Source of the DNA: Candidatus Peregrinibacteria bacterium CG_4_9_14_0_2_um_filter_41_14
GTDB lineage: Bacteria > Patescibacteriota > Gracilibacteria > UBA1369 > UM-FILTER-41-14
NCBI GenBank assembly: GCA_002788755.1
Contig: PFRW01000051.1
Coordinates: forward strand, 1 to 44,131
Direction: 5' to 3'
DNA: 44,131 bases
The translations under genes and the position numbers were made by a program. Positions 5,528-20,706 of this stretch are shown here, piece by piece. A model generated the notes under the pieces. The model did no database searches and had not been told where the DNA came from. It saw only the letters and a list, made by a program, of their open reading frames with translations. The stretch's first letter is position 1, and every line of letters begins with the position of its first letter.

Positions 5528-8500
5528 ATGTTACAAAACCAATTTGGAAGCCACAAGACGAATAACCAAAATAGTTTCACCTTTAAGGAAAAACACCTAA
5601 TCGGATTCGAACTGTTTGGCGATCTTGAAAATGAAAGTACCAACGACCCAAAAATTGAAACAGTGCAAAACCTCCAAAAAAGTCTCAATACAATCAAAAA
5701 AAATGACGAAGACACAACCGAACATAACACAAGCATTGAAAAATCAATTTATGAATTACTAAACGACGAACACGACCTAGACACAACAACGGCAAGCATG
5801 ATTGCTAAACATTTAAGCAATAAACTTAAAGAAAAAAACGGCGCCTATCCGGACGGAAACCTCCAAAACCGCGATATCGTTGTCAAAAACAAAGGTAACA
5901 AAATTACCGTCTCAACCCACGAAGAAACAAGCTGGTACGACCTCGAGAATTACGAAAACACCTATTTTACAGACACAGTGGATTTAACAGATGAAGATAT
6001 TCAAGAAATCATTAACGAAAACATTGCAAACAAAGCCGTAGCAACCAGTAGCCTTTCCAGTTACATAGATCGATCCAAAGTAGTTCCCGAAGATGATCGC
6101 TGGAGAAGCAGATATCTACTATTTCAAACCGAACAATCGTTACAACAGATCAACAAAGAACCCCTGGAATCAGATGAATATTACGGTGTACCTAAAAACT
6201 TTACCGATCGTTTTAATGACGCAACAGGTATGAGAGAAGCAATTTTAACCGAACAAATTAGTGATAGTCAAAATCTCGTTAAACTATTTGCCAGGCTTGG
6301 CATCAACCAACGTCAATTTTTAGAAGAATCATTTGGCTCAAGTTTTTTTGGCAATCTAGAACCTGGTGTTTCCGCACAACAAATTTTTGAATTCAGCAAT
6401 TTAAGCAAAAAATACGACACAATTGAAGATGCCCAAAATCGTCTTCAAATTTTAGCCAAAGATCCCGACACAAATCGCAAAGAAATAAGCGAAATCACCA
6501 GAAACATCCGTGATATCCGCGCCCTTGGCGAAATGTTAAGAGACTTGGAATACCACGCGCCTGACAAAAAAAATCCTGACTACATTAGTAAAATTAATTT
6601 TAGCAATGCCCTAGATGCCAAAAGTAAAGAAGCCTTTAAAGATAACCCAGCAATTATAATGGCACTTATGGGCTATCTATATGGCTTAAAAAATCTACAA
6701 AAAGAACAATACGTCAGCTACAGTCTAAACTCCGATCAACGGTTCGAAGCCTTTATCGAAGAAGTACCGGCAAGAGACTACGACAAATTACTAAAAGCAT
6801 ATCAAAAAATTGATATCACATGGGCACTTGGAAGCCAAACTCTAACGGAAGGTATTCAAGAATTATCAAAACCGGAATATGCGGACGTAAGAAGCATCCT
6901 CGATGCTGCAAAACTAGATTACATTGGACAAGGTGACAGCCCCATTGCAAGTGACATCGCAAGCCTTATCGCCAATCCTCTGAATACAGGTCCCATTAAC
7001 GAAGACTATGAAACATTAACTCAAGAAGAAATGACCGGTCCCGGCGCTACCGCCGAGTCTGCAAACTTTGTTAATCGTCAATACTCACAAAAAGCGATCT
7101 ACGAAAGTATTCTCCGTGACTGCCGTGACTTTAAAACAAACCAATACGATCTAACAAAATTAGAAACAAATCTAAAACGCTACGCCGAATATGGACGTTT
7201 ATACATCGCCCAAAACCCGGAAGCGCTTAAAGAAAACAATACATCACTTCTAAATACTCAGTGGCCGGAGAACACACCGCTACTCAACGCTCTAGCCGAT
7301 AAAAACTTAATTCAACTGATTCGACATGGCTTTTTACTAGAACAAAAAGTAAAAAATTCAACAAAAAAACAAGTAAAGGGATTAGACCAAGACTTACAAC
7401 AAAACAAAATTAATCCTCAAGAATTAGCACACTTCCTCACCGGCCTACACCTTGATAAAGACGGACTAGAAAAATTAGGTCTTGGCGCCGCACTAGTGAT
7501 CAATTTAGACGATGCAGGTAATCCAAACCAAAACAGTATTCATGTTGGCGGTGCAGCCAATGTCCTTGATCCAAAAGAAAGCGGCATTATTATCACATTT
7601 AGCCGTAACAATACGGAAACCGGAACCGAAGCCAGTGCTGGCACAGTGCTCAACCCTTACACAGCCAATATCGGTTTCAGTATTAAAGGTGAAATTTCTA
7701 AAAATTACCACATACGTCTTAACGGTGGCATTGGCACATTTGGACCAGTCCTTGCCGCCAGTATAGGCGCCGGCTTTGGTCGCGACTTAAAGACTTACAC
7801 AACCGAACACGAAGAAGAAACAATCAAAGAATTCTACGACACAAAAGGCACTGTTTTTGAAGAACTCAATGCGGCTCAAAAAGCCAAAAAATCCGAAACA
7901 GAGCAAATGGCGATTGTTAATAAAATCCCCCACCTTAAAGAACTACACGAATATTTCACAAAGCAAACCCCGCCTTTACCAGAAAAACAAATTAATGAAA
8001 TTTTCATCGGTGAAAACGGACTAGCTAATGAACTACAAAACAACATAAAAAATTATGCCGTTGAAAACACAAGCGAAGTAGGTTGGGAAGTTGGCGGTGG
8101 ACTTGCGTTCGTCGATATTTTTGGCGTAACAGTTCCTATCCCCTATGCCTACATTAGTCTGGAACTTCCAACCGGCAAAACCATTATGCGTTACAGCATG
8201 CCATCAGACGTTGAAGCCAACACACAAATTCAAATGGAAGATGCCATTCAAGCACAATTACTTGAACAAGCGGGCACAAGCCAAAATCTAATAGTTACAT
8301 CAACAAAAAGCGGCGAAGTTTATTTCGATAAAGAAACCGGCCAATGGCGTATAAACCAAACGCGTGGGATTCCAGAACTTGGCACTTTAAATGCAGACCA
8401 AAAAGCCAAAGCCAAAAAACTCACAGAAGCATACAAAGCTTATGGCATCACCTTTAGTGAGATTACAGATCCAGCCTATACCACAAAAGATGGACTCAAA

Positions 8501-10339
8501 GACAATGGCTATCTAGCTATGGAACTAAATACAGATTTTATTGGAGATAACAATGTTGAAGTCCACGTTGATCCATCCGCTAGCGGCATTCACCTAACCA
8601 CCCTTGGCGAATCAACCGATGACGGTAAGCTTAAATTTGCCGCCAACGTTAATGGTGCCAAAAATCTATTCATTACAAGACGAGAGAACCTCAAAGCTGA
8701 CGGTACCAACAATATCATCATCACAATCACCGACAAAAAAGGTATGTCACTCGAAGAAATCGAAACCAAAGAGCCCGGATATTATCATTTCCAAAACAAC
8801 CGTATGAAATATGTAAATGGTACATATTTTGAAGGACAACCACCAACGCCCGACAAATTAACTTTAGGAGGATCAAATCGTAATATCGAAAACAGACTAT
8901 TCAATAATCAAATAATTACGCCAGAGATACTAAATAGTAGTGAATACATTAACAAAACACTAACTACAACCACATCTCCGGACAGCCTTATGGCAGAACA
9001 TACACAAACATTAAATACATTAGTTAAGAAGCTAAGCACAAAAGATAAAAAAGGGTACGCCGCAATTTCAACTCTAAAATTAAAAGATGGCGAAATGCCA
9101 AATCTAGAAAAGATTAGCACTTTCATCAACACACAATACAAAAAAGCATTCCCGGGCAAACAGATAACCCAAGCGGAATTTCAATACCTCTATGAAAAAA
9201 TTACAGAAGAAACATTTGTCGATCTTAATACGATAAAAAATAAAGAAGCTCACATCAACCATGTAATAGGCATGTCCGATCGTTTCATAGATCGCGCCCT
9301 TAAAAACGCACCTACACTTAAAACAAAATTCACACCTGCAGAAATACTAATCATTAGACAAGAAATCAAAGAAGATTTTAAAATCGCCCTTCAGGGACCA
9401 AGTGAAACAAAGTTCAACACTCAATCATTAAAAGACGCCGGTCTTATCGAAAACTACTTCGTCTCCACAGCAGCCAACCAAGCGGTTGGCCTAGAAAACA
9501 AAGGATACCGCTACGTTGATACCAATGATGATAGCAGCATTAAAATACTAGAAAACTCAATAACTCAATACAGCTTGACCAAGGAAGGTGCATCAAACGA
9601 AGAAAAACTTGTAGCCAAATTCATCCTAGAACTCAGCGATCCTATTGAATCAACATCAAATGCTATAGATCAAGCCCACACATTACTCGGCTCACAATTA
9701 GCCATCAAACTTGCAACTCTACCAATTGGTATGCAAGGTGGCAAAACAATCAATTTCTTAGCACTAAAGATGGGTCCACAAAATGCACAAATAATAGCTG
9801 ACCTAATTAATGATCCACTAAATCTCTTTAGTGGTAACGGACAAGAATTCGCCCCTGAAATGAGCCCCGCTTATAATGAATTTTTACAATTTGTAAAAGA
9901 AATACGTCAAAATCAAATAGACGGTAAACCATATAAATTTGAAGTAGGAGAAGGCAACAACAAAATGCAAATTGAAATGAACATGCCAACACAACTATCC
10001 AGTCTCCTTTTATCTCGATGCGGTAATACAACTTTTGCCAGCCATGAAGGTATCGAAATCAAAGTCACCAATGCTCAAGGCGAAATGCTAGGAGGCTACG
10101 CCGAGAACAAACTTCACGGATACAAGACAACAGAAAGCGCCGACACTGCCAAGCTTACACTAGGATTATCATTTAAACCTGATGTCCCAACTAAGAAAAC
10201 ACCTGGAGGAGGCGGCGACGGAGAAGGCGGCAAAGAACCCACCCCACGCCCTGATGATACCGGCGGCAGTCCCGCTGTTCCCAAAGAAGACTCTAAAACA
10301 GTAACAGGTGGCGGTGGCACCACAGAACCAAGCCGCTAA
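5528..10339 (+). CDS. Large hypothetical protein (1603 aa)
   Basis: Uninterrupted 4.8-kb ORF divergent from tpiA. No classical signal peptide; Gly/hydrophobic beta-strand-like middle block; Pro/Gly-rich tail. No family recognised. Confidence 0.88.
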   Translation: MLQNQFGSHKTNNQNSFTFKEKHLIGFELFGDLENESTNDPKIETVQNLQKSLNTIKKNDEDTTEHNTSIEKSIYELLNDEHDLDTTTASMIAKHLSNKLKEKNGAYPDGNLQNRDIVVKNKGNKITVSTHEETSWYDLENYENTYFTDTVDLTDEDIQEIINENIANKAVATSSLSSYIDRSKVVPEDDRWRSRYLLFQTEQSLQQINKEPLESDEYYGVPKNFTDRFNDATGMREAILTEQISDSQNLVKLFARLGINQRQFLEESFGSSFFGNLEPGVSAQQIFEFSNLSKKYDTIEDAQNRLQILAKDPDTNRKEISEITRNIRDIRALGEMLRDLEYHAPDKKNPDYISKINFSNALDAKSKEAFKDNPAIIMALMGYLYGLKNLQKEQYVSYSLNSDQRFEAFIEEVPARDYDKLLKAYQKIDITWALGSQTLTEGIQELSKPEYADVRSILDAAKLDYIGQGDSPIASDIASLIANPLNTGPINEDYETLTQEEMTGPGATAESANFVNRQYSQKAIYESILRDCRDFKTNQYDLTKLETNLKRYAEYGRLYIAQNPEALKENNTSLLNTQWPENTPLLNALADKNLIQLIRHGFLLEQKVKNSTKKQVKGLDQDLQQNKINPQELAHFLTGLHLDKDGLEKLGLGAALVINLDDAGNPNQNSIHVGGAANVLDPKESGIIITFSRNNTETGTEASAGTVLNPYTANIGFSIKGEISKNYHIRLNGGIGTFGPVLAASIGAGFGRDLKTYTTEHEEETIKEFYDTKGTVFEELNAAQKAKKSETEQMAIVNKIPHLKELHEYFTKQTPPLPEKQINEIFIGENGLANELQNNIKNYAVENTSEVGWEVGGGLAFVDIFGVTVPIPYAYISLELPTGKTIMRYSMPSDVEANTQIQMEDAIQAQLLEQAGTSQNLIVTSTKSGEVYFDKETGQWRINQTRGIPELGTLNADQKAKAKKLTEAYKAYGITFSEITDPAYTTKDGLKDNGYLAMELNTDFIGDNNVEVHVDPSASGIHLTTLGESTDDGKLKFAANVNGAKNLFITRRENLKADGTNNIIITITDKKGMSLEEIETKEPGYYHFQNNRMKYVNGTYFEGQPPTPDKLTLGGSNRNIENRLFNNQIITPEILNSSEYINKTLTTTTSPDSLMAEHTQTLNTLVKKLSTKDKKGYAAISTLKLKDGEMPNLEKISTFINTQYKKAFPGKQITQAEFQYLYEKITEETFVDLNTIKNKEAHINHVIGMSDRFIDRALKNAPTLKTKFTPAEILIIRQEIKEDFKIALQGPSETKFNTQSLKDAGLIENYFVSTAANQAVGLENKGYRYVDTNDDSSIKILENSITQYSLTKEGASNEEKLVAKFILELSDPIESTSNAIDQAHTLLGSQLAIKLATLPIGMQGGKTINFLALKMGPQNAQIIADLINDPLNLFSGNGQEFAPEMSPAYNEFLQFVKEIRQNQIDGKPYKFEVGEGNNKMQIEMNMPTQLSSLLLSRCGNTTFASHEGIEIKVTNAQGEMLGGYAENKLHGYKTTESADTAKLTLGLSFKPDVPTKKTPGGGGDGEGGKEPTPRPDDTGGSPAVPKEDSKTVTGGGGTTEPSR

Positions 10340-10605: not shown

Positions 10606-13515
10606 ATGCCTAAATGGAAAATCATGAAAAAAACCGGTATGTATCTGGCAGCAACAGCCACCGCCGCTCTACTTAGCTTAGCGCTATTTCAAACTGCCAC
10701 AATCGCACAAAGTACATGTACTCCAAATCAAAACACTTTTAGAGATGGACTTGTATTAGAGGAATGTCCCAATGGTACAACCTCCCCAACTTTTAATGCA
10801 TACAAAAATTACGAATACAAAGATTACACTCGTTTTGATGAAAGAAATTTCTTACAAGTACGTAAACTTACAAACGGTGCTTACGTCGATAACGTCTCAG
10901 TATTACCAGGTGACACACTACGTTTTAACGCTTATTTACACAACAACTGTGATCCAAGCTTAAATGATGGTGGCAATGGTGTTTGTGTTGCGCACAATGT
11001 CGAAACATTTGTTCGACAATTCCTTGAGAACAATCAACAAAACTTTCAAACCACACCCTCACTTAAACAAACAATTACGCAAACGTTTTCAGCATCAAAC
11101 GCTACACCAAGACAAGTAACAGATGACGTCGTTGTACGAAGTGCTGACAATCAAAATATCGTCTTAGAATACATCCCAAATACCGCTCTTTACTATAATG
11201 CGCTCAATCCTGATCGCACATATAAATTATACGCCAGAGAATTATTTGGTAATGGTGCGCAAGTAACATCAGTTAATCGTAATGGCACAATAAATAACGA
11301 CGGTGACTTTTTTGGCAGCTCCGCTTACATCACCTACTTTAATTTCGACGTCATCATCAAACGACCCCCAACCCCACCGCCAAGCGCAGCGTGTGTAAAC
11401 CTACAAATTACAAACGTTGTAAATAATGCCGATGGCTCAATTAATTTTAGCTGGACCACAAATCCAACTGACTATGCAGATAAAGCGGTACTAGCCCTTA
11501 AACAAGGCCCTGGTACTTTAGAAATGCTCGGCAACAACCGGGCACGTCTTAGCAACTTTAACAAAGATACAGTTGTTACTGTATTTGTTCCGGGATCAGA
11601 GCAACAATGTAAAGATGAGCTACCTGTAGCCCCTTACATTCCCCAAAATCCATGTTATGACCTTGTCTTAACTCCAGATAAGTTTAACCCACTCGAACCT
11701 AGTCATAGATTCAGTGTGCAAACTAATCCAAACAACTATAACGAATTAAACTGGAAACTAACCGGACCAAACACCGACGTAACCGTGATGGTTGCCGGTG
11801 ATAAACGTTCGGCCGTCTTTACCAATTTAGGACCCGACCATGTAGTTAGCGTCTTTGCCACAGGTGAAGTTGCTCCGGGCAAAAAATGTGAAGACGAAGC
11901 TCGATCACAATTACCTCCTCCAACAGAATACTGTTTAGCTGCTAACCTAAAACCAAATCATTTCCCTGCCAATGGCGGACGCCGTGAATTTGTATTTGAA
12001 TACACACCTAACGAATACAAAGGTGACTTCATTTGGCGCACAGTTCCTGCCAATGTTGGTCTATTTGCCGACGGTTCGCAGATTGGCAATGCCATTACCA
12101 CCCGTGCCCGTCGCGTTGTTTATCGCGGTGGTCAACCGGGTACACAAGTAATTGTCGAAGCCAAAGATCCGGCCTTTAGATCAAAATGTACCGACATTGC
12201 CATTGCCCGAAACGACGTCCCGGCCGACGAAAACGACAACCTAGTTAAAACTGCTGATATCAGTCTTGCAAAACCAGGTGACACAGTGACTTACAATATC
12301 ACTTACAAAAAAGACCCGTTCTTCCAAAGCGACACAAACAACGTCACAATCTTCGATACTATTGGTAAAGAAGGCTTTGTCAGCGGTGATCGTGGTGGCA
12401 AAATTGTACCTGTAGCGGGATCGATGCGAGTAAACTTGCCAGTTTGTACCGGACTTGCCGCCACTAACTGTTACACAGGCTCAATCCTTAATCCAAACGG
12501 TATCACCTTACAACATTTTACAAATACCGCTCCGGTTAACATCTCTTACAAAGCAACCGTAAACACAGTGATTAATGCCGCCCTTTGCGAAAACCTTACC
12601 AACACTTTCTGTGGAGAAAAATTCACAAACGAAGCATTCGATACCGAAAATCACTTTGCTACTTGGACAATTACCGTTTTATGTCCAGCCTTCCGCAGCT
12701 TCGGCTTTGGCGATATCTTCCTAGAAGATACATTTAAAGGCGGTATCGATACCCTAAAATGTAACGGTAAACCAAATACTCAAGGTATTGTGGTAACTCC
12801 AACTAAACCAACAGACAACAAAATCGTAAGTACAGGTGAAGACGCTTCTCGTCGTCCAGAACATGGCGAATGTAAAAATAGTGATATCTTCCCTAACTTA
12901 TCGTCAGCTTTATGTGAGTTACAATCACAATTATCTGACGAGTTCACCAACAATCCTTTACGAACATTAACTCGTAATGCCGAACTGGTTTGTACCAATG
13001 CCTTAATTCGCGATAACGTGACCCTAAGAAACGGATCAATTTCCGAACTTCGTCAATACGCCAATCCAAACAACACTAACGAACTTGTAATCTGTGCCAA
13101 CACAATCACAACAACCGGCCCAATTACAATCGATTACGATGGCCCTGTAACTTTGGTCGCTAAAAAAGGTCTAACCATTAATGGTGACATCCTTTACAGC
13201 AAAAACACCAAAATCACACCATCTGTAGTCGCCGTAACCAACGGTGCTATTACCACCAACAAAACTAAAAAACTAAGCGGTATTTATATCGCCCTACCAA
13301 ACAGCGACAATCTTATTGCACCAATGGTCATCAATAACGATACAAGCCGCCCCGGTGCCCCGTTTGAAGTAGTTGGCTCCCTAATTGGTACCAGTTTCGA
13401 AGTTCAAAACAACGACTTCAACATCATCTACGACCTCGGTCGCTTCCTAATCACAGAACCTTCTGTGCTAAACGATGCCTTAGACTTTATTCAAGAAGTT
13501 ACGGTTAATCAGTAG
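10606..13515 (+). CDS. Secreted Cys-rich multidomain surface protein with a DUF11-like module
   Basis: Signal peptide (MKKTGMYLAATATAALLSLALFQTATIA; start may be 10624), three Cys-bracketed repeats, DUF11-like LVKTADISLAKPGDTVTYNITY, and a C-terminal G.L.I.GDI / GIYIA / V.GSLIG / IIYD solenoid-like region. Confidence 0.85.
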   Translation: MPKWKIMKKTGMYLAATATAALLSLALFQTATIAQSTCTPNQNTFRDGLVLEECPNGTTSPTFNAYKNYEYKDYTRFDERNFLQVRKLTNGAYVDNVSVLPGDTLRFNAYLHNNCDPSLNDGGNGVCVAHNVETFVRQFLENNQQNFQTTPSLKQTITQTFSASNATPRQVTDDVVVRSADNQNIVLEYIPNTALYYNALNPDRTYKLYARELFGNGAQVTSVNRNGTINNDGDFFGSSAYITYFNFDVIIKRPPTPPPSAACVNLQITNVVNNADGSINFSWTTNPTDYADKAVLALKQGPGTLEMLGNNRARLSNFNKDTVVTVFVPGSEQQCKDELPVAPYIPQNPCYDLVLTPDKFNPLEPSHRFSVQTNPNNYNELNWKLTGPNTDVTVMVAGDKRSAVFTNLGPDHVVSVFATGEVAPGKKCEDEARSQLPPPTEYCLAANLKPNHFPANGGRREFVFEYTPNEYKGDFIWRTVPANVGLFADGSQIGNAITTRARRVVYRGGQPGTQVIVEAKDPAFRSKCTDIAIARNDVPADENDNLVKTADISLAKPGDTVTYNITYKKDPFFQSDTNNVTIFDTIGKEGFVSGDRGGKIVPVAGSMRVNLPVCTGLAATNCYTGSILNPNGITLQHFTNTAPVNISYKATVNTVINAALCENLTNTFCGEKFTNEAFDTENHFATWTITVLCPAFRSFGFGDIFLEDTFKGGIDTLKCNGKPNTQGIVVTPTKPTDNKIVSTGEDASRRPEHGECKNSDIFPNLSSALCELQSQLSDEFTNNPLRTLTRNAELVCTNALIRDNVTLRNGSISELRQYANPNNTNELVICANTITTTGPITIDYDGPVTLVAKKGLTINGDILYSKNTKITPSVVAVTNGAITTNKTKKLSGIYIALPNSDNLIAPMVINNDTSRPGAPFEVVGSLIGTSFEVQNNDFNIIYDLGRFLITEPSVLNDALDFIQEVTVNQ

Positions 13516-14808: not shown

Positions 14809-17800
14809 CTAACGAATCTGCACTACCCCTTTGTCTGTTCCCGATAAAACAATTTGCTCTTTATCTTTTAAGTTTTGTAGTGTGGCCGGCTCTGTCACAA
14901 ATTCACCCGGATTAACCACACGTGCATAATAGTAATAGTCATGGTCATTACAACTATTATCGCCAATCACACAGAAAATACTGGCACGTACATTCTGGCC
15001 AAGCTGATAATTTAAATACAAACGACCCTGAGACCACTCAGCATAATTAACTACAGGAAGCACTTTCAAACCACTTGGTAAAATATCGCCAATCACATAT
15101 GACCCCTCGTGGTCCCCAACATTCACATCAAAGACAACCTTAACTATATCCCCTTTGCTAAATGCTGTCGTTTGTTTTCCATCTACCCAATAACTACGCT
15201 TAATCTTAAGGACATCAGCTTGTTTAACATCAGCGTAAGCCACTTTTTGAGCATAATCAGTTACTGCAACTAAATCACCTTTAATATCAGACACCTTTAA
15301 TGAGGCAATTTCTTTGGGCAATAAATTCATTTCATAAGTTTGATTACCAACCAATTTCACTTTCTTACTATTAACCTTAAATTCAATCGCTTCGGTAAAA
15401 CCTTTCCCTAAACGTGACTTTGTATAAATTAACTGTTCCAGTAAAACACTATCATTTTGAGAAGCCACAAATTCACTACTTGTCGCATAAGCATGCTGCC
15501 ATAAGCGATCACGTTGATCACTATTAAGCTCTGAAGCAACATAAGCCAACATTGTTTCCGCCGCCACAGCATCCTCCGGCACAACAAACTCTTGAGCATT
15601 AAAGCTTACTACCGCCTGCCTAAACCAATCTGCGGCCTTTGACTTAGCACCAACTTTGGCATAGGCAACTGCCACCCACAACTGCTCATCAAACTTATTT
15701 AACTTTTGATTTGCAACCAAGTAATCCAAATCCACTAAGACAGACTCTTTTAATCCGGCCAAACCGGCTAAAGCTTGTAATTTTTCCACCAATTGATTTT
15801 TATTACTTAAAACAGAATTAAAATAAATTTTCATCTCTTCTTGATTCCATAAAGCAGGAGCCAAAATCGCCAATTTTGTTGTCGCCTCCAAACTAGCATC
15901 ACTATAAGCAAATAAACTAATTCCACCTTTATTTTTAGCCTCTTGATAAACCAATACCGGTGTATCCACTTTTAACAAACCACGCTTATAATACTCATTC
16001 AATAACTCACCTGCCACATACTGACCAGCCACATAATCGGCTCGATCAACATTATTATATAAAGACCGTGACAACAACGGATACAGCTTCCCCAGTTCTT
16101 GATTAACAAAGGTCAAATTAACACGACCATCATATTGTTGAGCAGCAAACGGCATCCCCTCTGTTACCTGTACAACCGCTTGTGCCGCTACTTTAAATCG
16201 AGAATCAACAACCTCAATCGGCAACTCAATTTTATCTGACTTTCCTTTTGCCTTCACAACGGTACTAATCACATGCTCACCCAATTTTAAAGGCAATGCA
16301 AAGTAGCTATTACTAAAGGCTTTGCCCGTTTTTGATTCATTATATCCTAAAGTTTTTGCAATCATTTCAAAATCGACTTTGTCAGTTACCGCCAAAATCT
16401 TACCAAACGCACGTACCGGAATTTGCGGCTTATCACCAACATTGTAGTCTGCACTAATTACCGGCAAAGCAAACAAATCTTGTGTCACCACAACCGGTGC
16501 CACCGCTCGTCCCACTCGCACAACATCACCACCGCTAATTGCCACAACCGATAAACGCCACTCGGTAATATTATCCGGTAATTTAACTTTTAAAGTTGCC
16601 TTACCACTACTATCAGTATTAACAGACGCAAAATAGGCTGTATCCTTAAAGTCACTGCGTCCACCTTTATCGTTATGCACATAAACTCCTTCCGCAAAAT
16701 AAGTATGATACTGCTCAACTTCAAAATTATAAACTGTGACAAATTCCCGCTTAAGCTCAACACTATTAACCAAAACCTCTTCACCATCACTTGTAACCAA
16801 ACGATCACCCACTTTAATTTTAGCGGCCAACTGCCACTGATTATTTACCCACACTACATGCACACCGGTCACATTAATTCGCTCATTAATTACCAAATAC
16901 TCATCTACGTTTGTTTGATGTAACCCGGTAACACGACCATTCACCAACGTTGAATCCCACTCGCTCGCACGTGTTTTAACTTGATCATCAATTTGTACAT
17001 CTTCAATTACCTTATAGCTACCATCTGCCATTAAAACTTTAGTACCAGCCAAGAAACACCCTCCCTTCTCACCACTTACATCATCTATTTGAGTATGAGA
17101 AAGATAAGAATAACTACCATCTAAATACAAATGTTTATAAATAGCCCCCAATGGGTCGGTTAACGCCTCACTAAATAGTGCATAGTAAGCTTCATCCACC
17201 AAGCGCACAGTTAAGTTGGCCGCCACCGGTTTCCCGGTATTGGCATCCTTAACCTCTACTTCAATGTCCGCTTCGTCACTGGGAGCATACTCGGCTTTAG
17301 TGGCTTTGGCATTAACGGTTAGTTCCCTATCGCTAGTATCCAAACCAATATCAATTGTAGTAGAACGACTATAATGCCGCCCATTAAATACCATCATCGA
17401 TGCATACACATTCGGCACATCTTCCTTGCCAAATTTAAACTCATAATTAGCATCACTTTGTAATTTGTAATTAAGACCTCCAACCTGCTTATTCATAAAC
17501 AAATAAGCAGTATTTGCCGACTTTGGACCAACAGCGGTTAAAGAGACCGTTTCCCCAATTTTATAATTAAACTGATTCCAATCACGGCCATCGGTGGCTT
17601 CCAAACTATAATAATCACTATCAGTAGACGTAGTGCCAAGATTCAAAAATTTACTCCCCTGATAGTCACGCCCCGACTTAACTACATACGACAACGTATA
17701 ATTAAAATCGGAATCCAAAGGCGCATCAAACTTAAAATCAATCTCCCCATTAGCATCAGACACAAAAGTATTTTTCATTACCGAATTCGTCCTCTTTTTG

Positions 17801-20130
17801 TACTCATACTTTTTACGTGTAACTTTACCAACGTAATCATAATATTCCCCAGCCAACACCCGGTCATACCGTGAACCTTCCACATTCACTACCACACTTA
17901 CATTGGCTGCTGACCCAACAATAATATCCTCCAAATCAGGGATAGAAAGTGCATTGCGATCTACCTTATTTAAATCAATTTTCGCTATATTCAAAGCAAA
18001 ACCATCTTGATCAAATTCAACATTTTCCACCGCTTCGCGGCCCTGATAAACAACAATATCCAATGAGTCAGCAATATAGCCCAATTCTTCACTAACAGTC
18101 GTTACAGTATGCCGATCACCTCCCACTAAACCGGACATACGATAAGCCTCCTCATCCGGAGACAACTTAACTGTCACCTTGCCCAAGTCATCAGTTGTAT
18201 AAACATTATTATCCAATTTAATCTTTGTTTGCGGAACAGGTGTACCGTCAAAGAAATTGGCTTTAACCTCCAAATTTACATCTTCATCATAATAATACAA
18301 ATACTTATCAGCCTGTAAATCCAAACCATATGCCGGCTTCACATAATCTTCAATCGCAATCCCCTCCGTCATTAACCAATTATCATCTTGATACACCGCT
18401 AATGTGTAATACTGATTAGGATTCAAATTGGCAAAACTAAATTCGCCACTAAAGGAACCGGTACCATCAAGTTCAATTCCCTGCTTTGCCAAAATCTTAC
18501 TGACATCGGCAGGTTTGGTTCTTGCACCAAAATAATCATCTACCAAAATCACTTCCGCTTTTCCCCTCAGCTTACTGAATCGCCCTTGTAAAAAGCCGGA
18601 GAACTTTACCGTATCGGTAGGCTTATAAACAGTACGATCAGTCATAAATAAATTCCAACTATCTTCACCAATCGCTTTGGAATCCAAACTATACTGCGGT
18701 ACATAATATGTAGTCATCGCCTCTGTTTCAACCACTACACCGGAATCATTGGCAATCTTATAATTAAACAAAGCAACACCGTCCTTTCCGGTTTTAATAA
18801 CATCTTTATCCACAGATACTTTTGCCCCCACCACCGGTTTACCGGTAGCAATATCATTAACCCAAACCAACGAGGCCGATTCGGTAATATCGATGTAAGT
18901 AGCCGTATTTGTCACCTGCAAGAAAGCCTGCCCCACTCCACCGGCACTTGCCAATTTTATCAAAAAATAACCAGCCGGCAGCTTGTCCGGAAATCCAATC
19001 TGATAACGCCCATTAACCAATCTTGCTTCGTATTCTTCCAAATCAACAATTTTAGTTAAGTTAGTCGTACCACTCTTATAATTCCTACTTTGATAAGAAG
19101 TCCAACTTGGTGCATTTTTTACATAATTAAGACGTTCGTTCAAAAAGGCGTCTCCACTCGGATATTGATAAACAGTAAGCGCAACATTAGCAATATCCTG
19201 CTCATTATTTGCAGAATCATAAAACTCTATCCCCTGATTATCCAATGGTGAAAACTCATAAAGACTCCGCATTATAGAGAAATAACTCTCCCTATCAGCC
19301 CCCCTACCTGTTTCAAATTCAAAACTATATTCACCAAGCTCCCGACCCTTAATTGTCACGGTATAAATGGACATTGGCGCTAAGCTTTCATCAGGCACAA
19401 ACAACATTGTCTTACCTCGATTTTCAAAACGCCCAGCAACAACCGGACTAATACTAAACATTTTTTTATAATCATCAACAGTCAAACCAGCATGTGAAAA
19501 AGTAATCTCAATCCCCGAATTAATTGGTGCATTTATCCCATACTTACCAGGTACGGTGGAAGTAACACGCAACCCATCATTAATCTGAAACGCCCACTGC
19601 AACTGTTGATCCGCCAAGGCCAACTGATAAATCTCTCCCGGCTGTAGCTCAGTTTTTGGCTTAATAGTGATCTCATTGGTACTTACCTTTTCAAGATCAA
19701 ACTCCGTTAGTGGTGCAAATGTTAAATTAGCTTGAATACTACTCACATCCAGATCGATTGTCTTGCTTGTTAATTTAAATCCTGAATCAACCGCCACAGC
19801 ACCGTTAACTTCCGTCACAGGTGTAATTTTGTACTCATCGTAAGCACTGGCAACATCAATCAAGTTTGGCAAAAGAATCAAGTTTCCGCCCGGCGCCAAA
19901 AACTGTGTCACAACTGCAATAAGCACTACTACCGCCGTAACCGGAGCCAACCATTTAAATGTCAGCCAATTACGCTTAACGCCAACATGCGAGACTTGTT
20001 CAGCCTTTTCAAGTAACCGCGCCCGTAAAGTCTGTTTAAAATACTGCTGCTTATCAACATCTATCTGTTTTTTAAATTTATTAGCCATATTTTTGAGAGT
20101 TTGTTGAAGTTTATTAAACGAATTAGTCAT
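14809..20130 (-). CDS. Membrane-anchored alpha-2-macroglobulin-family protein with Ig-like domains, an internal Hint domain and no CxEQ thioester
   Basis: MG2-like FMTDRTVYKPTDTV and EDYVKP, YAPSD...LVDEA, A2M core RSDFKDTAYF...TDSSGKA...LPDNITEWR, C-terminal GDIVKV...DILPSGL...YYARVVNPGEFVTEPA. TM helix at about aa 60-79. Confidence 0.92.
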   Translation of the reverse strand: MTNSFNKLQQTLKNMANKFKKQIDVDKQQYFKQTLRARLLEKAEQVSHVGVKRNWLTFKWLAPVTAVVVLIAVVTQFLAPGGNLILLPNLIDVASAYDEYKITPVTEVNGAVAVDSGFKLTSKTIDLDVSSIQANLTFAPLTEFDLEKVSTNEITIKPKTELQPGEIYQLALADQQLQWAFQINDGLRVTSTVPGKYGINAPINSGIEITFSHAGLTVDDYKKMFSISPVVAGRFENRGKTMLFVPDESLAPMSIYTVTIKGRELGEYSFEFETGRGADRESYFSIMRSLYEFSPLDNQGIEFYDSANNEQDIANVALTVYQYPSGDAFLNERLNYVKNAPSWTSYQSRNYKSGTTNLTKIVDLEEYEARLVNGRYQIGFPDKLPAGYFLIKLASAGGVGQAFLQVTNTATYIDITESASLVWVNDIATGKPVVGAKVSVDKDVIKTGKDGVALFNYKIANDSGVVVETEAMTTYYVPQYSLDSKAIGEDSWNLFMTDRTVYKPTDTVKFSGFLQGRFSKLRGKAEVILVDDYFGARTKPADVSKILAKQGIELDGTGSFSGEFSFANLNPNQYYTLAVYQDDNWLMTEGIAIEDYVKPAYGLDLQADKYLYYYDEDVNLEVKANFFDGTPVPQTKIKLDNNVYTTDDLGKVTVKLSPDEEAYRMSGLVGGDRHTVTTVSEELGYIADSLDIVVYQGREAVENVEFDQDGFALNIAKIDLNKVDRNALSIPDLEDIIVGSAANVSVVVNVEGSRYDRVLAGEYYDYVGKVTRKKYEYKKRTNSVMKNTFVSDANGEIDFKFDAPLDSDFNYTLSYVVKSGRDYQGSKFLNLGTTSTDSDYYSLEATDGRDWNQFNYKIGETVSLTAVGPKSANTAYLFMNKQVGGLNYKLQSDANYEFKFGKEDVPNVYASMMVFNGRHYSRSTTIDIGLDTSDRELTVNAKATKAEYAPSDEADIEVEVKDANTGKPVAANLTVRLVDEAYYALFSEALTDPLGAIYKHLYLDGSYSYLSHTQIDDVSGEKGGCFLAGTKVLMADGSYKVIEDVQIDDQVKTRASEWDSTLVNGRVTGLHQTNVDEYLVINERINVTGVHVVWVNNQWQLAAKIKVGDRLVTSDGEEVLVNSVELKREFVTVYNFEVEQYHTYFAEGVYVHNDKGGRSDFKDTAYFASVNTDSSGKATLKVKLPDNITEWRLSVVAISGGDVVRVGRAVAPVVVTQDLFALPVISADYNVGDKPQIPVRAFGKILAVTDKVDFEMIAKTLGYNESKTGKAFSNSYFALPLKLGEHVISTVVKAKGKSDKIELPIEVVDSRFKVAAQAVVQVTEGMPFAAQQYDGRVNLTFVNQELGKLYPLLSRSLYNNVDRADYVAGQYVAGELLNEYYKRGLLKVDTPVLVYQEAKNKGGISLFAYSDASLEATTKLAILAPALWNQEEMKIYFNSVLSNKNQLVEKLQALAGLAGLKESVLVDLDYLVANQKLNKFDEQLWVAVAYAKVGAKSKAADWFRQAVVSFNAQEFVVPEDAVAAETMLAYVASELNSDQRDRLWQHAYATSSEFVASQNDSVLLEQLIYTKSRLGKGFTEAIEFKVNSKKVKLVGNQTYEMNLLPKEIASLKVSDIKGDLVAVTDYAQKVAYADVKQADVLKIKRSYWVDGKQTTAFSKGDIVKVVFDVNVGDHEGSYVIGDILPSGLKVLPVVNYAEWSQGRLYLNYQLGQNVRASIFCVIGDNSCNDHDYYYYARVVNPGEFVTEPATLQNLKDKEQIVLSGTDKGVVQIR
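16672..17058 (-). other. Hint (intein-like/BIL) autoprocessing domain, 129 aa, inside the A2M (residues 1025-1153)
   Basis: Block A CFLAGTKVLMADG, block B VTGVH (TxxH), block F/G VYNFEVEQYHTYFAEGVYVHN. No endonuclease domain. The +1 residue is Asp. Confidence 0.95.
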
Positions 20131-20694
20131 TGTAAATTGGGGTTAGATGCTTAGATAACCGTTTTAAAGCCCGGTTAAGCTTAACTCCCACATTACTTGT
20201 GGAAGTATTAAGAACATTAGCAATATCTTCATAAGAAAGTTCTTCAAAATAACGAAGCGTTAAAACGTCTTGATCTCGGACTTTAAGCGCCGTAAAAGCC
20301 ACCGATACCTGTAAAATATCTTGCGCACGCTCTTCCTGTAGCTCTTCCGTTTTTAGTGAATGATCAGCTGCATCCGCAGACCAATCAAACTGTTGCATTT
20401 TTTCCTTATACGCCATTTCCGACTTTTACTCCTAAAATGCTGCCGTAATTCGTTCAGCGCAATTTTATACAGCCACGCAATAAAAGGCTTGCCGGTCCAT
20501 GTATAACCATCAAGCTTATTTAAGGCTATCAAAAAAGTTTCAGCTGTTAAATCTTCAGCCAAACCCACTTCGCCCAATCGCGTCAGCAAATATCGATAGA
20601 TTGCATCAAAGTACAAATCGTACAAAGCAACAAATTTGGTTTTATCAACCTTGGCCGCTGCTACCAATTCCTCCACATTAATTTCATTTTCCAT
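20123..20694 (-). pseudogene. ECF sigma-70 factor split across two frames (sigma2 part 20694-20353, sigma4 part 20416-20123)
   Basis: Upstream ORF has LYDLYFDAIYRY...AEDLTAETF...FIAWLYKIALN (region 2). Downstream ORF has VLTLRYFEELSYEDIANVLN.S.SNVGVKLNRALKRL (region 4). Adding one base near 20419 gives a 190-aa ECF. Confidence 0.85.
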
Positions 20695-20706
20695 TGCCAA
20701 TATTAA

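Follow-up and report, generated by a model that had tools for sequence, protein, structure and literature searches.

What is an intein-like Hint domain doing at the end of the bait region of a bacterial alpha-2-macroglobulin (A2M)? The question is raised by contig PFRW01000051.1 of Candidatus Peregrinibacteria bacterium CG_4_9_14_0_2_um_filter_41_14 (assembly GCA_002788755.1), whose positions 1 to 44,131 are the stretch of DNA analysed here, hereafter the window. Its minus strand encodes P0001, an A2M-like protein of 1773 residues that is interrupted by a Hint segment of 129 residues. Sequence and predicted fold identify this segment as a Hint domain of the bacterial intein-like (BIL) kind, type A, and it lies just ahead of the plug segment (alpha'NT) of the macroglobulin. 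The features that define it are the following.

16672..17058, minus strand: Hint domain (type-A BIL-like), residues 1025-1153, 129 amino acids; from Pfam, NCBIfam, a PDB match, and AlphaFold with Foldseek
17056..17058, minus strand: Cys1025, Cys1 of the Hint and presumed thioester nucleophile; invariant in 119/119 and 101/101 aligned sequences
16858..16869, minus strand: block B, T-G-V-H, residues 1088-1091 (T1088, H1091); Thr and His invariant in a 101-sequence alignment
16672..16677, minus strand: C-terminal His1152-Asn1153, with the presumed succinimide-forming Asn; V-H-N in 119/119, and TIGR01443
16660..16671, minus strand: C-terminal flank D1154-K1155-G-G, with Asp at +1 and Lys at +2; from junction counts over 332 proteins
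16630..16659, minus strand: alpha'NT-like plug RSDFKDTAYF (R1158, F1161); from profile and single-sequence alignments to vertebrate A2M

With the junctions marked by slashes, the translated reading frame runs ...DDVSGEKGG/CFLAGT...(129 residues)...YVHN/DKGGRSDFKDTAYF. The segment scores 53.7 bits against Pfam PT-HINT (E 3.3e-14, cut-off 27.7), which on the whole of P0001 matches residues 1035-1154 (E 1.5e-12), and 24.9 bits against NCBIfam intein_Cterm (TIGR01443, cut-off 15.6); the match to Pfam Hint (PF01079), at 17-22 bits, is under the cut-off of 29.7. The best PDB sequence match is 2lwy, a 'bacterial intein-like domain' from C. thermocellum (E 7e-9 full length, 2.9e-18 by profile), and 6y75/6tmm are matched at 3.3e-8 by sequence and 2.5e-17 by profile. 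An AlphaFold model of residues 1015-1165 is confident for the Hint (pLDDT 88, pTM 0.82) and floppy in the flanks. Foldseek finds 67 PDB matches to this model at E <= 0.001, with BIL, intein and Hedgehog structures ranked best: 6y75/6tmm, the 'BIL2 domain from T. thermophila BUBL1 locus', comes top (E 8e-12, TM 0.82-0.83, 25% identity), and 2lwy (E 2e-10, TM 0.78/0.85, rmsd 1.8), mini-inteins (E ~1e-7, TM 0.69-0.76) and Hedgehog (E 3e-6) are also found. Known BILs, 2lwy and 6y75, thus outrank inteins both by sequence and by fold, and the segment carries the traits of the type-A group, with Cys1025, a C-terminal V-H-N and Asp1154, so that no nucleophile stands at +1. The original prediction, made from the letters alone, had described a Hint domain of 129 residues in the bait region, with a TxxH motif and an EKGG and a DKGG at its two borders, in the span 16660-17070; the translation and Pfam confirm every detail, the span being the Hint plus two four-residue flanks. 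Its assignment to the BIL type with a non-nucleophilic +1 residue agrees with the PT-HINT and intein_Cterm matches, with 2lwy and 6y75 as the best structures, and with the family counts given below.

Other members of the Hint superfamily fit less well. A canonical class 1 intein was rejected, since the window has Asp at +1 and just 12/332 homologues have Ser or Thr there. A homing endonuclease or its traces can likewise be dismissed at a length of 129 residues in the window and 123-141 residues across all 332 parsed proteins. A pretoxin Hint of polymorphic toxins would be followed by a C-terminal toxin domain, but A2M, TED-like and bMG10 domains lie downstream here, and the Pfam scan of P0001 found no toxin family. 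The G-C-F of Hedgehog/Hog autoprocessing domains is present, yet the segment closes with His-Asn and lacks any additional region at its C-terminus.

Compared with class-1 mini-inteins (Ssp DnaB, Mtu RecA), the domain shares the fold, the residues of blocks A, B and G, insertion into a conserved host motif, patchy presence, and use of the same site in paralogous hosts. It differs in that Cys, Ser or Thr at +1 is absent in 320/332 proteins and in that its host is an exported surface protein, whereas the usual hosts of inteins are replication and repair enzymes; no endonuclease-bearing A2M Hint was seen among the 332 (123-141 residues). Classical BILs sit in hypervariable proteins; the Hint of the window instead belongs to one fixed site of one host family, the A2Ms, in hundreds of proteins, and its flanks are conserved as GG / [DEQ]-K-G. 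With the C. thermocellum BIL (2lwy; PMC4031507, excerpt) it shares the ~130-residue mini-Hint without endonuclease, Cys1, TxxH, a VYNF-type block F, the terminal His-Asn, the lack of a +1 nucleophile, and a place in a secreted non-housekeeping protein.

The position within the macroglobulin is well defined. The Hint lies between Pfam A2M_BRD (residues 855-985) and A2M (residues 1164-1239), and model confidence falls below a pLDDT of 50 at residues 1004-1023, that is in 20 residues before the Hint, at model residues 388-390, and in six residues after the Hint, 1155-1160. In a family profile, residues 730-798 of human A2M (6tav) align straight after the Hint. The single sequence RSDFKDTAYF pairs with RKNFSETFLW in A2Moo (frog ovomacroglobulin) and, in human A2M, with residues 734-738. 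By both alignments R1158 and F1161 correspond to R732 and F735 of human A2M, the conserved Arg and Phe of alpha'NT (Harwood 2022, excerpt), and the C-terminal Hint junction is therefore four residues ahead of the plug Arg. These plug residues are kept across 119 aligned relatives (R in 118, F in 111, D in 118). The motif R..F.DT..F, which had been taken to mark the post-bait segment, thus does so.

According to the same source (Harwood 2022, excerpt), discontinuity of the bait frees alpha'NT and leads to the A2M conformational change in a plug-in-channel model, and complement factors carry a folded ANA domain in the bait position, with a furin cut at its N-terminal side. The Hint occupies the position equivalent to the ANA domain of complement C3, C4 and C5. 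Both are folded domains between an N-terminal half and alpha'NT with one cut on each side, and in complement the C-terminal cut creates alpha'NT (Harwood 2022, excerpt). The ANA domain is, however, a helical bundle cut by outside proteases, whereas the Hint would cut itself, and the analogy is one of position, not homology.

To describe the family we used three sets of proteins. Set 1 comes from 306 matches to a first search, with figures taken from the 120 listed; the Hint is at the same site in 119 of these, at 33-46% identity, and in the 119-protein alignment Cys1, Phe2 and V-H-N are present in 119/119 and Gly at -1 in 118. Set 2 comes from a library-wide HMMER search (358 representatives of 50%-identity clusters at E <= 1e-30), where ~138 of the top 150 listed have flank, Hint and flank in one stretch and ~12 are multi-Hint proteins; many of the newly found proteins are ~1650-1780 residues long, start with a signal peptide and keep the CxEQ thioester motif. 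Set 3 comes from a search with one protein of the CxEQ class (1120 matches, 120 listed); the 120 listed have the Hint and BRD, and nearly all the TED family, with named members from Daviesbacteria, Gottesmanbacteria, Woesebacteria, Pacebacteria and Beckwithbacteria and one Nevskiaceae-labelled record. Junctions could be parsed in 332 distinct proteins (127/142, 93/113 and 112/114 of sets 1, 2 and 3). The junction patterns left 15/142, 20/113 and 2/114 unparsed, and ~12 of the 20 are multi-Hint proteins other than A2Ms.

Set 1 (127 proteins): Hint of 129 residues in 120; Gly at -1 in 123; +1 D 95, E 11, Q 11, S 7, A 3; Lys at +2 in 119; CxEQ in 4
Set 2 (93 proteins): Hint of 129 residues in 81; Gly at -1 in 93; +1 D 38, Q 25, E 17, N 4, S 3, A 3, T 2, K 1; Lys at +2 in 87; CxEQ in 38
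Set 3 (112 proteins): Hint of 129 residues in 63 and of 128 in 47; Gly at -1 in 112; +1 Q 78, D 18, E 14, N 1, G 1; Lys at +2 in 112; CxEQ in 111

Over all 332 proteins the +1 residue is D in 151, Q in 114, E in 42, S in 10, A in 6, N in 5, T in 2, and K and G in one each; it is thus D, E or Q in 307/332, Ser or Thr in 12/332 and non-nucleophilic in 320/332. Gly at -1 (328/332) and Lys at +2 (318/332) are close to fixed, GG fills -2/-1 in 120/127, 88/93 and 110/112 of the three sets, and the Hint has 129 residues in 264/332 (range 123-141). CxEQ is kept by 153/332 Hint-bearing proteins, including 111/112 of one class. Exactly two Cys are found in 82/112 proteins of this thioester class, presumably the Hint Cys1 and the Cys of CxEQ. 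The mean pairwise identity is 0.44 for the Hint and 0.29 for the flanking 330 residues on either side, and the Hint is the higher of the two in 99% of 1117 pairs. The invariance of the catalytic set speaks for an active Hint. Hint-bearing proteins with names are nearly all of Candidate Phyla Radiation (CPR) origin.

Are the conserved flanks a property of the Hint or of its host? As had been noticed before, the KGG of the two flanks is written in different codons (AAG GGA GGG on the N-terminal side, AAA GGT GGA on the C-terminal side); by our own count 7/12 bases of the flank DNA in the window are identical. Hint-less relatives can be aligned on both sides of the site and have a short Gly-rich loop there, reading [ED]KGG or a run of 4-7 Gly in the same place. 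The site reads ...GAEKGGGGDRALGR in a Hint-less Uhrbacteria-type clade, GGGEKGGGGGEADVR in Ligaoa and LDGGDKGGRNIPIR in Fimbriimonas; Hint-less CPR sisters of Hint-bearing proteins have NDGGGGGGGPELPR, LGGGGGMR, AEGGGGGGDR and GGKGGGSGR. GGDKGGR is likewise read at the site among Hint-less relatives. Both the GG that precedes the Hint and the [DE]-K-G-G that follows it are thus versions of an ancestral motif of the host, and the simplest view of the acidic +1 residue is that it belongs to the host itself. A check proposed with the original prediction, the alignment of Hint-bearing with Hint-less homologues, gave a single insertion site with conserved Gly-rich flanks, and the idea that the KGG bracket belongs to the Hint did not survive it. 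A target-site duplication brought by the Hint was rejected on the same grounds, since [ED]KGG or Gly runs exist in Hint-less relatives. Some proteins carry the motif on both sides, such as AEKGG/Hint/AEKGG in L048 and P0078, and the C-terminal flank is EKGG in 11/127. In L048 the two 15-nt flanks are identical at 13/15 positions, and in L041 11/12 are identical. With EKGG on both sides and such near-identical flank DNA, an old duplication or a repeat-mediated loss is possible.

Many Hint-less bacterial A2Ms (L074, L060, L059, L056, L067-L072) have a run of 4-7 Gly just ahead of the alpha'NT Arg, and GG is found within 14 residues of the plug Arg in 25/32 Hint-less proteins. We know of no description of such a conserved Gly-rich bait end.

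From the sequence features, placement, conservation and homology described above, we infer the following chemical steps. Once the protein is exported, the Hint would fold, and Cys1025 would attack the carbonyl of Gly1024 in an N-S acyl shift to give a Gly-Gly thioester. Cyclisation of Asn1153 would then sever the Hint from Asp1154. Since Cys, Ser or Thr is missing at +1, the thioester would be resolved by an amine of the C-terminal flank, with water as the competing nucleophile. This amine could be the epsilon-amine of Lys1155, giving an isopeptide as in Tetrahymena BUBL BIL2, or the freed alpha-amine of Asp1154, giving a peptide bond as proposed for type-A BILs. The Hint of 14.7 kDa would be released, and the 114-kDa membrane half and the 68-kDa C-terminal half would be rejoined at the Gly-rich junction or remain as a two-chain protein.

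Both amines have precedents. Type-A BILs, with an intein-like His-Asn and without a +1 nucleophile, are described as forming an N-terminal thioester, cyclising the Asn and using the freed amino group to attack the thioester; splicing is possible and cleavage products dominate (PMC4031507, excerpt). BIL2 forms an isopeptide between a Lys epsilon-amine and the C-terminus of its ubiquitin-like N-flank without ATP, and can conjugate this N-flank to other proteins (PMC8616854, excerpt). The window family resembles this amine-ligating fold relative, with GG filling -2/-1 and a Lys that hardly varies at +2. BIL2 differs in being eukaryotic with ubiquitin-like flanks, whereas the flanks here are macroglobulin halves and the isopeptide is a prediction.

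In our view the Hint probably excises itself and the two A2M halves are rejoined via an amine; this would be the chief outcome under physiological conditions, and nicking a by-product. Rejoining is favoured because Hint-less sisters in the same context keep an unbroken loop, because the product, ..GG-DKGG-R.., would mimic the natural sequences of Hint-less proteins, because Lys is the sole residue fixed relative to the junction, and because the two nearest solved relatives both ligate via amines. In proteins with the Hint the Lys is fixed at +2, whereas just 12/32 proteins without it have a Lys among the 8 residues upstream of the plug Arg; this contrast fits a role of the Lys in the Hint chemistry. 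Several points weigh on the other side. The dominance of cleavage among type-A BILs favours nicking over rejoining (PMC4031507, excerpt), and a break just before alpha'NT should trigger the A2M change, so that cleavage could itself be the selected outcome (Harwood 2022, excerpt). When the distance is widened to 14 residues from the plug Arg, 21/32 Hint-less proteins have a Lys, in a comparison whose rows are mutually related rather than independent; conservation of the +2 Lys may thus be partly a host requirement. In addition, the 12/332 proteins with Ser or Thr at +1 suggest that some members may splice canonically.

If cleavage were the purpose, the Hint would leave without rejoining and turn the single chain into a macroglobulin of two chains, much as C3 is processed at its ANA domain by furin and the convertase; the freed alpha'NT could then pre-trigger or time the A2M change without an outside protease, and in the members coupled to a sigma factor (described below) could prime an anti-sigma factor for intramembrane proteolysis. 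Besides the cleavage products of type-A BILs (PMC4031507, excerpt) and the triggering of A2M by bait discontinuity (Harwood 2022, excerpt), the non-nucleophilic +1 residue in 320/332, where Ser arises in several lineages without spreading, and the junction only four residues ahead of R1158, the equivalent of R732, would suit such a purpose. MagD, another A2M without thioester, is cut in vivo from 165 to 100 kDa at a site that is not known (PMC3735191, excerpt), and the calculated fragments of P0001 are 114 and 68 kDa; autoproteolysis of the anti-sigma factor RsgI is essential for signalling (PMC10328401, excerpt), and a Peptidase_M50 gene lies within the window. However, Hint-less sisters keep the unbroken Gly-rich loop together with the same sigma coupling, so with a constitutively broken loop the two kinds of sister would work differently, and hydrolysis leaves the near-invariant +2 Lys unexplained. 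We rate cleavage as the purpose as unlikely, though worth serious consideration. The original prediction had instead seen a device that cuts its own bait and forms a Gly-Gly thioester, reminiscent of a ubiquitin-like C-terminus and able to ligate to amines. Carried to its full extent, this reading makes the thioester a warhead that would ligate the membrane half to foreign amines such as protease lysines or cell-wall amines, and replace the A2M thioester. BIL2, the closest structural relative, does conjugate its N-flank to lysines of other proteins without ATP (PMC8616854, excerpt), GG at -2/-1 is found in 120/127, 88/93 and 110/112 proteins, and the window protein itself is without CxEQ. But 153/332 Hint-bearing A2Ms keep CxEQ, including 111/112 of one class, thioester-less relatives without a Hint are common, the Gly runs are ancestral to the host and occur without the Hint, and the adjacent amine of Lys1155 or Asp1154 should outcompete foreign amines. 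The amine-ligating thioester has thus gained a precedent in BUBL BIL2, while its role as a substitute for the lost A2M thioester is rejected by the retention of CxEQ, and the warhead in its full form appears improbable. It is least credible, to a degree that we would call very improbable, that the Hint is an inert insert which does not process itself and stays on the bait of the mature protein as a folded knob; the non-nucleophilic +1 residue would allow this, but Cys1, T..H and His-Asn are invariant over proteins otherwise ~30% identical, and the Hint is more conserved than its host.

How did the Hint come to this site? Across the phylum, 401 genomes were sampled: 20 have flank, Hint and flank in a large frame, with one further contig-end fragment, 25 match only the post-Hint flank (two of these also hold a Hint-bearing copy), and in 4 the Hints lie in other frames, of smaller size. 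Genomes G234 (C12, C89) and G118 (C36, C95) each contain an A2M gene with the Hint alongside one without it. A host tree was built from 90 proteins using 330 residues on either side of the site with the Hint removed (quick IQ-TREE search, LG+G4). On this tree the Hint is present in 7/21 of a thioester clade and in 41/55 of a thioester-less CPR clade, and its distribution requires no fewer than 10 gains or losses, of which well-supported branches force 7. Mixed sister pairs with and without the Hint occur inside families (L048/L074, L038-39/L060, L049/L068). A single ancient insertion with vertical descent only is rejected by these changes and by the approximately unbiased (AU) test, which rejects one Hint clade (delta lnL 674, p 2e-80).

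Hint and host distances are correlated (Mantel r 0.66, 0/2000 permutations as high). The Hint tree, with 129 columns and just 6/44 branches well supported, did not tell gain from loss; Hint identity reaches a plateau of ~0.44 at host identities of 0.15-0.35, and the tree therefore cannot separate loss from transfer. In one pair, L041 and L039, the Hints are 60% identical and the hosts 17%, which hints at transfer. Composition gives no signal of recent acquisition, the GC content being 0.388 in the Hint and 0.398 in the rest of the gene (window sd 0.02).

Taken as a whole, the Hint behaves like a resident intein-like insertion: two A2M classes share its conserved site, its presence among relatives is patchy, and selection keeps it functional. 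The original prediction had called it domesticated; such use by the host is unproven, since the host tree demands 10 or more gains or losses and families with the Hint also include Hint-less sisters. That prediction had also named a pattern that would speak against it, namely sporadic insertion, a nucleophilic +1 residue and unconserved flanks; the presence is indeed patchy, but the +1 residue is rarely a nucleophile and the flanks are conserved.

Some Hints stand apart. In L053, L054 and L055 (genomes G096, G047 and G019) a Hint lineage of 139-141 residues occupies this site of the A2M; it shares ~29% identity with the other Hints, forms a very long branch in the Hint tree, and may be an independent insertion at the same place. 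P0121, P0122, P0129, P0154 and others are not A2Ms and have 3-6 tandem copies of closely related Hints; the copies of P0121 read CFLAGTKIEMADGS...VHN, with F, A or K at +1. Such tandem Hints indicate that the A2M Hint belongs to a wider BIL group.

Among the papers listed in our literature searches, and judged by title, none deals with a Hint or intein inside an A2M or with an A2M-type anti-sigma factor; of those listed for CPR terms, none contains 'Hint domain' or 'intein-like'. Databases do show the architecture, through automatically assigned names such as 'polymorphic toxin-type HINT domain-containing protein', but leave it uninterpreted. Biochemical cases of BIL domains are few and their biological purpose is unclear; here one lineage sits at a mechanistically critical site, and the conformational state of the A2M is a defined biological read-out for BIL chemistry. 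For A2M research, the family would offer a natural, protease-independent means to break or re-tie the bait. Protein engineering may also profit from such an amine-ligating mini-Hint, flanked by Gly-Gly and Lys.

The remaining features of the host protein and the gene upstream of it are as follows.

14809..20130, minus strand: A2M-like protein P0001, 1773 residues, stop codon included; from translation of the open reading frame (ORF)
19960..20130, minus strand: N-terminal cytoplasmic tail, anti-sigma-like, residues 1-57; 12 K/R against 4 D/E
19885..19953, minus strand: single hydrophobic membrane segment, residues 60-82; Kyte-Doolittle
17176..17568, minus strand: Pfam A2M_BRD (bait-region domain), residues 855-985; E 3.8e-9, 37.4 bits, cut-off 22.7
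17059..17172, minus strand: low-confidence bait linker, residues 987-1024, ending in EKGG; pLDDT below 50 in parts
16414..16641, minus strand: Pfam A2M domain, residues 1164-1239; E 9.3e-8, 32.2 bits, cut-off 21
15403..16101, minus strand: all-helical TED-like domain without CxEQ, residues 1344-1576; helices in the AlphaFold model (model residues 745-977)
14869..15201, minus strand: bMG10, C-terminal macroglobulin domain, residues 1644-1754; Pfam E 4.2e-8
20123..20700, minus strand: gene for an extracytoplasmic function (ECF) sigma factor with regions 2 and 4; two ORFs matched by Pfam Sigma70_r2 and Sigma70_r4_2

P0001 is a membrane-anchored thioester-less A2M-like protein. The Pfam domain scan matches Big_5, A2M_BRD, PT-HINT, A2M and bMG10, and the protein has the traits of the superfamily, that is a macroglobulin (MG) body, a bait-region domain, an A2M domain and a C-terminal MG domain. 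The AlphaFold model of residues 600-1773 (pLDDT 82.1) consists of MG-type beta domains, a helical TED-like domain and a C-terminal MG domain. Foldseek matches it best to 5a42, the ECAM of E. coli (E 4.7e-40), and to 4u48, the A2M of Salmonella, with E values of 4.7e-40 to 1.5e-38 for these two A2Ms; A2ML1, C4, CD109 and C5 come next. No CxEQ motif is found in the whole 1773-residue sequence, whose three Cys are C1025 (the Hint Cys1), C1720 and C1727. Hydropathy peaks at 2.35 in the 19-residue Kyte-Doolittle windows starting at residues 56-68, which suggests a single-pass anchor with the N-terminus inside and a very large outside domain. P0001 shares fold, domain order, and a bait followed by an R..F.D plug with known bacterial A2Ms (ECAM/YfhM, Salmonella A2M and MagD/YfaS), and the lack of CxEQ with MagD (PMC3735191, excerpt). 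It differs from them by the Hint at the bait end, by a signal-anchor with a cytoplasmic tail in place of a lipobox or signal peptide, and by an ECF sigma gene upstream in place of pbpC or the mag operon. Named relatives of P0001 come from Peregrinibacteria, Gracilibacteria and other Patescibacteria. The source genome (0.96 Mb, 69 contigs) yielded no second Hint in a PF07591 search and no second A2M with the C-terminal half as query.

The sigma gene lies directly upstream, and its stop overlaps the A2M start codon. In the window it is split by a one-base frameshift near 20423. In 4/4 public runs (groundwater and aquifer metagenomes) the contigs are longer by one base behind 20423, where a short homopolymer lies, and this puts regions 2 and 4 in one frame; the break is therefore probably an assembly error or a rare variant. 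Among the public data sets listed for the window, none is an RNA data set. Across loci, counted by tblastn with the window's own sigma pieces, by which unrelated sigma genes would be missed, the coupling is distributed as follows.

Hint-bearing assessable loci: sigma upstream on the same strand in 13/21
Hint-less, thioester-less CPR loci: sigma upstream on the same strand in 10/15
Hint-less CxEQ CPR loci: sigma upstream on the same strand in 0/8
Non-CPR loci: sigma upstream on the same strand in 0/20

L007 also has the sigma gene, and its A2M frame falls outside the parsed loci. The gap between sigma and A2M is -8 to +46 nt in 18 parsed loci, and the A2M tail has a conserved F-K-x-x-L-R helix ahead of the membrane segment. 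We predicted the complex of the L003 sigma factor with residues 1-56 of its A2M, using alignments of our own making. It reached a median ipSAE of 0.83 over three runs, with at least 93% contact agreement and a partner pLDDT of at least 76, and the controls a best-of-three ipSAE of 0.02; the mark applied is reached by 58/80 solved complexes and by 2/110 mismatched pairs. Contacts were with sigma region 2 (residues 16-58) and region 4 (124-184). The topology of P0001, an N-terminal segment followed by one membrane segment, would fit an ECF anti-sigma factor, and its gene lies co-oriented beside the sigma gene; the Pfam scan of P0001 matched no anti-sigma family. The A2M protein thus probably doubles as the anti-sigma factor of its ECF sigma in many CPR lineages, as the modelled complex and gene order suggest. 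Two points weaken this. Binding was predicted on L003 alone, an orthologue ~34% identical to the window protein, and since ECF sigma/anti-sigma complexes have already been solved, the pass may only show likeness to them.

The source genome has five Sigma70_r2 matches only. The Peptidase_M50 gene (RseP-type site-2 protease) lies on the same contig at 42119-43663, minus strand (E 2e-59); site-2 proteases of the RseP type release ECF sigma factors from membrane anti-sigma factors. FecR/FoxR anti-sigma factors reportedly undergo autoproteolysis via an N-O acyl shift. With RsgI (Asn-Pro) and FecR/FoxR the window protein shares a single-pass, anti-sigma-like topology beside an ECF sigma and a putative self-cleaving extracytoplasmic element; the autoproteolytic fold and chemistry differ, and the anti-sigma role of P0001 is a prediction that extends to Hint-less relatives. 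It would make macroglobulin ectodomains on ECF anti-sigma factors a candidate new class of sensor in the regulator-poor CPR bacteria. It is tempting to speculate that the Hint is a built-in trigger and ligase at the activation site, in which an isopeptide staple at Lys+2 holds the plug, hydrolysis or an outside amine frees it so that the macroglobulin snaps shut with no protease involved, and in sigma-coupled members this gates intramembrane proteolysis of the anti-sigma factor. We hold this extended scheme to be doubtful; if true, intein chemistry would be wired to transcription in bacteria with genomes of ~1 Mb.

Beside this locus are two very large ORFs on the plus strand, 5528-10339 (1603 residues) and 10606-13515 (969 residues), neither with a Pfam match at E <= 0.001. 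A Hint-less sigma-A2M locus is also found in L023, L027 and L035, which are titled 'uncultured Gammaproteobacteria'. L027 is near identical to the copy in a Candidatus Uhrbacteria record, L031 (tree distance ~0.12), and the tight clade to which it belongs also includes L023 and L035; these three are probably mis-binned contigs.

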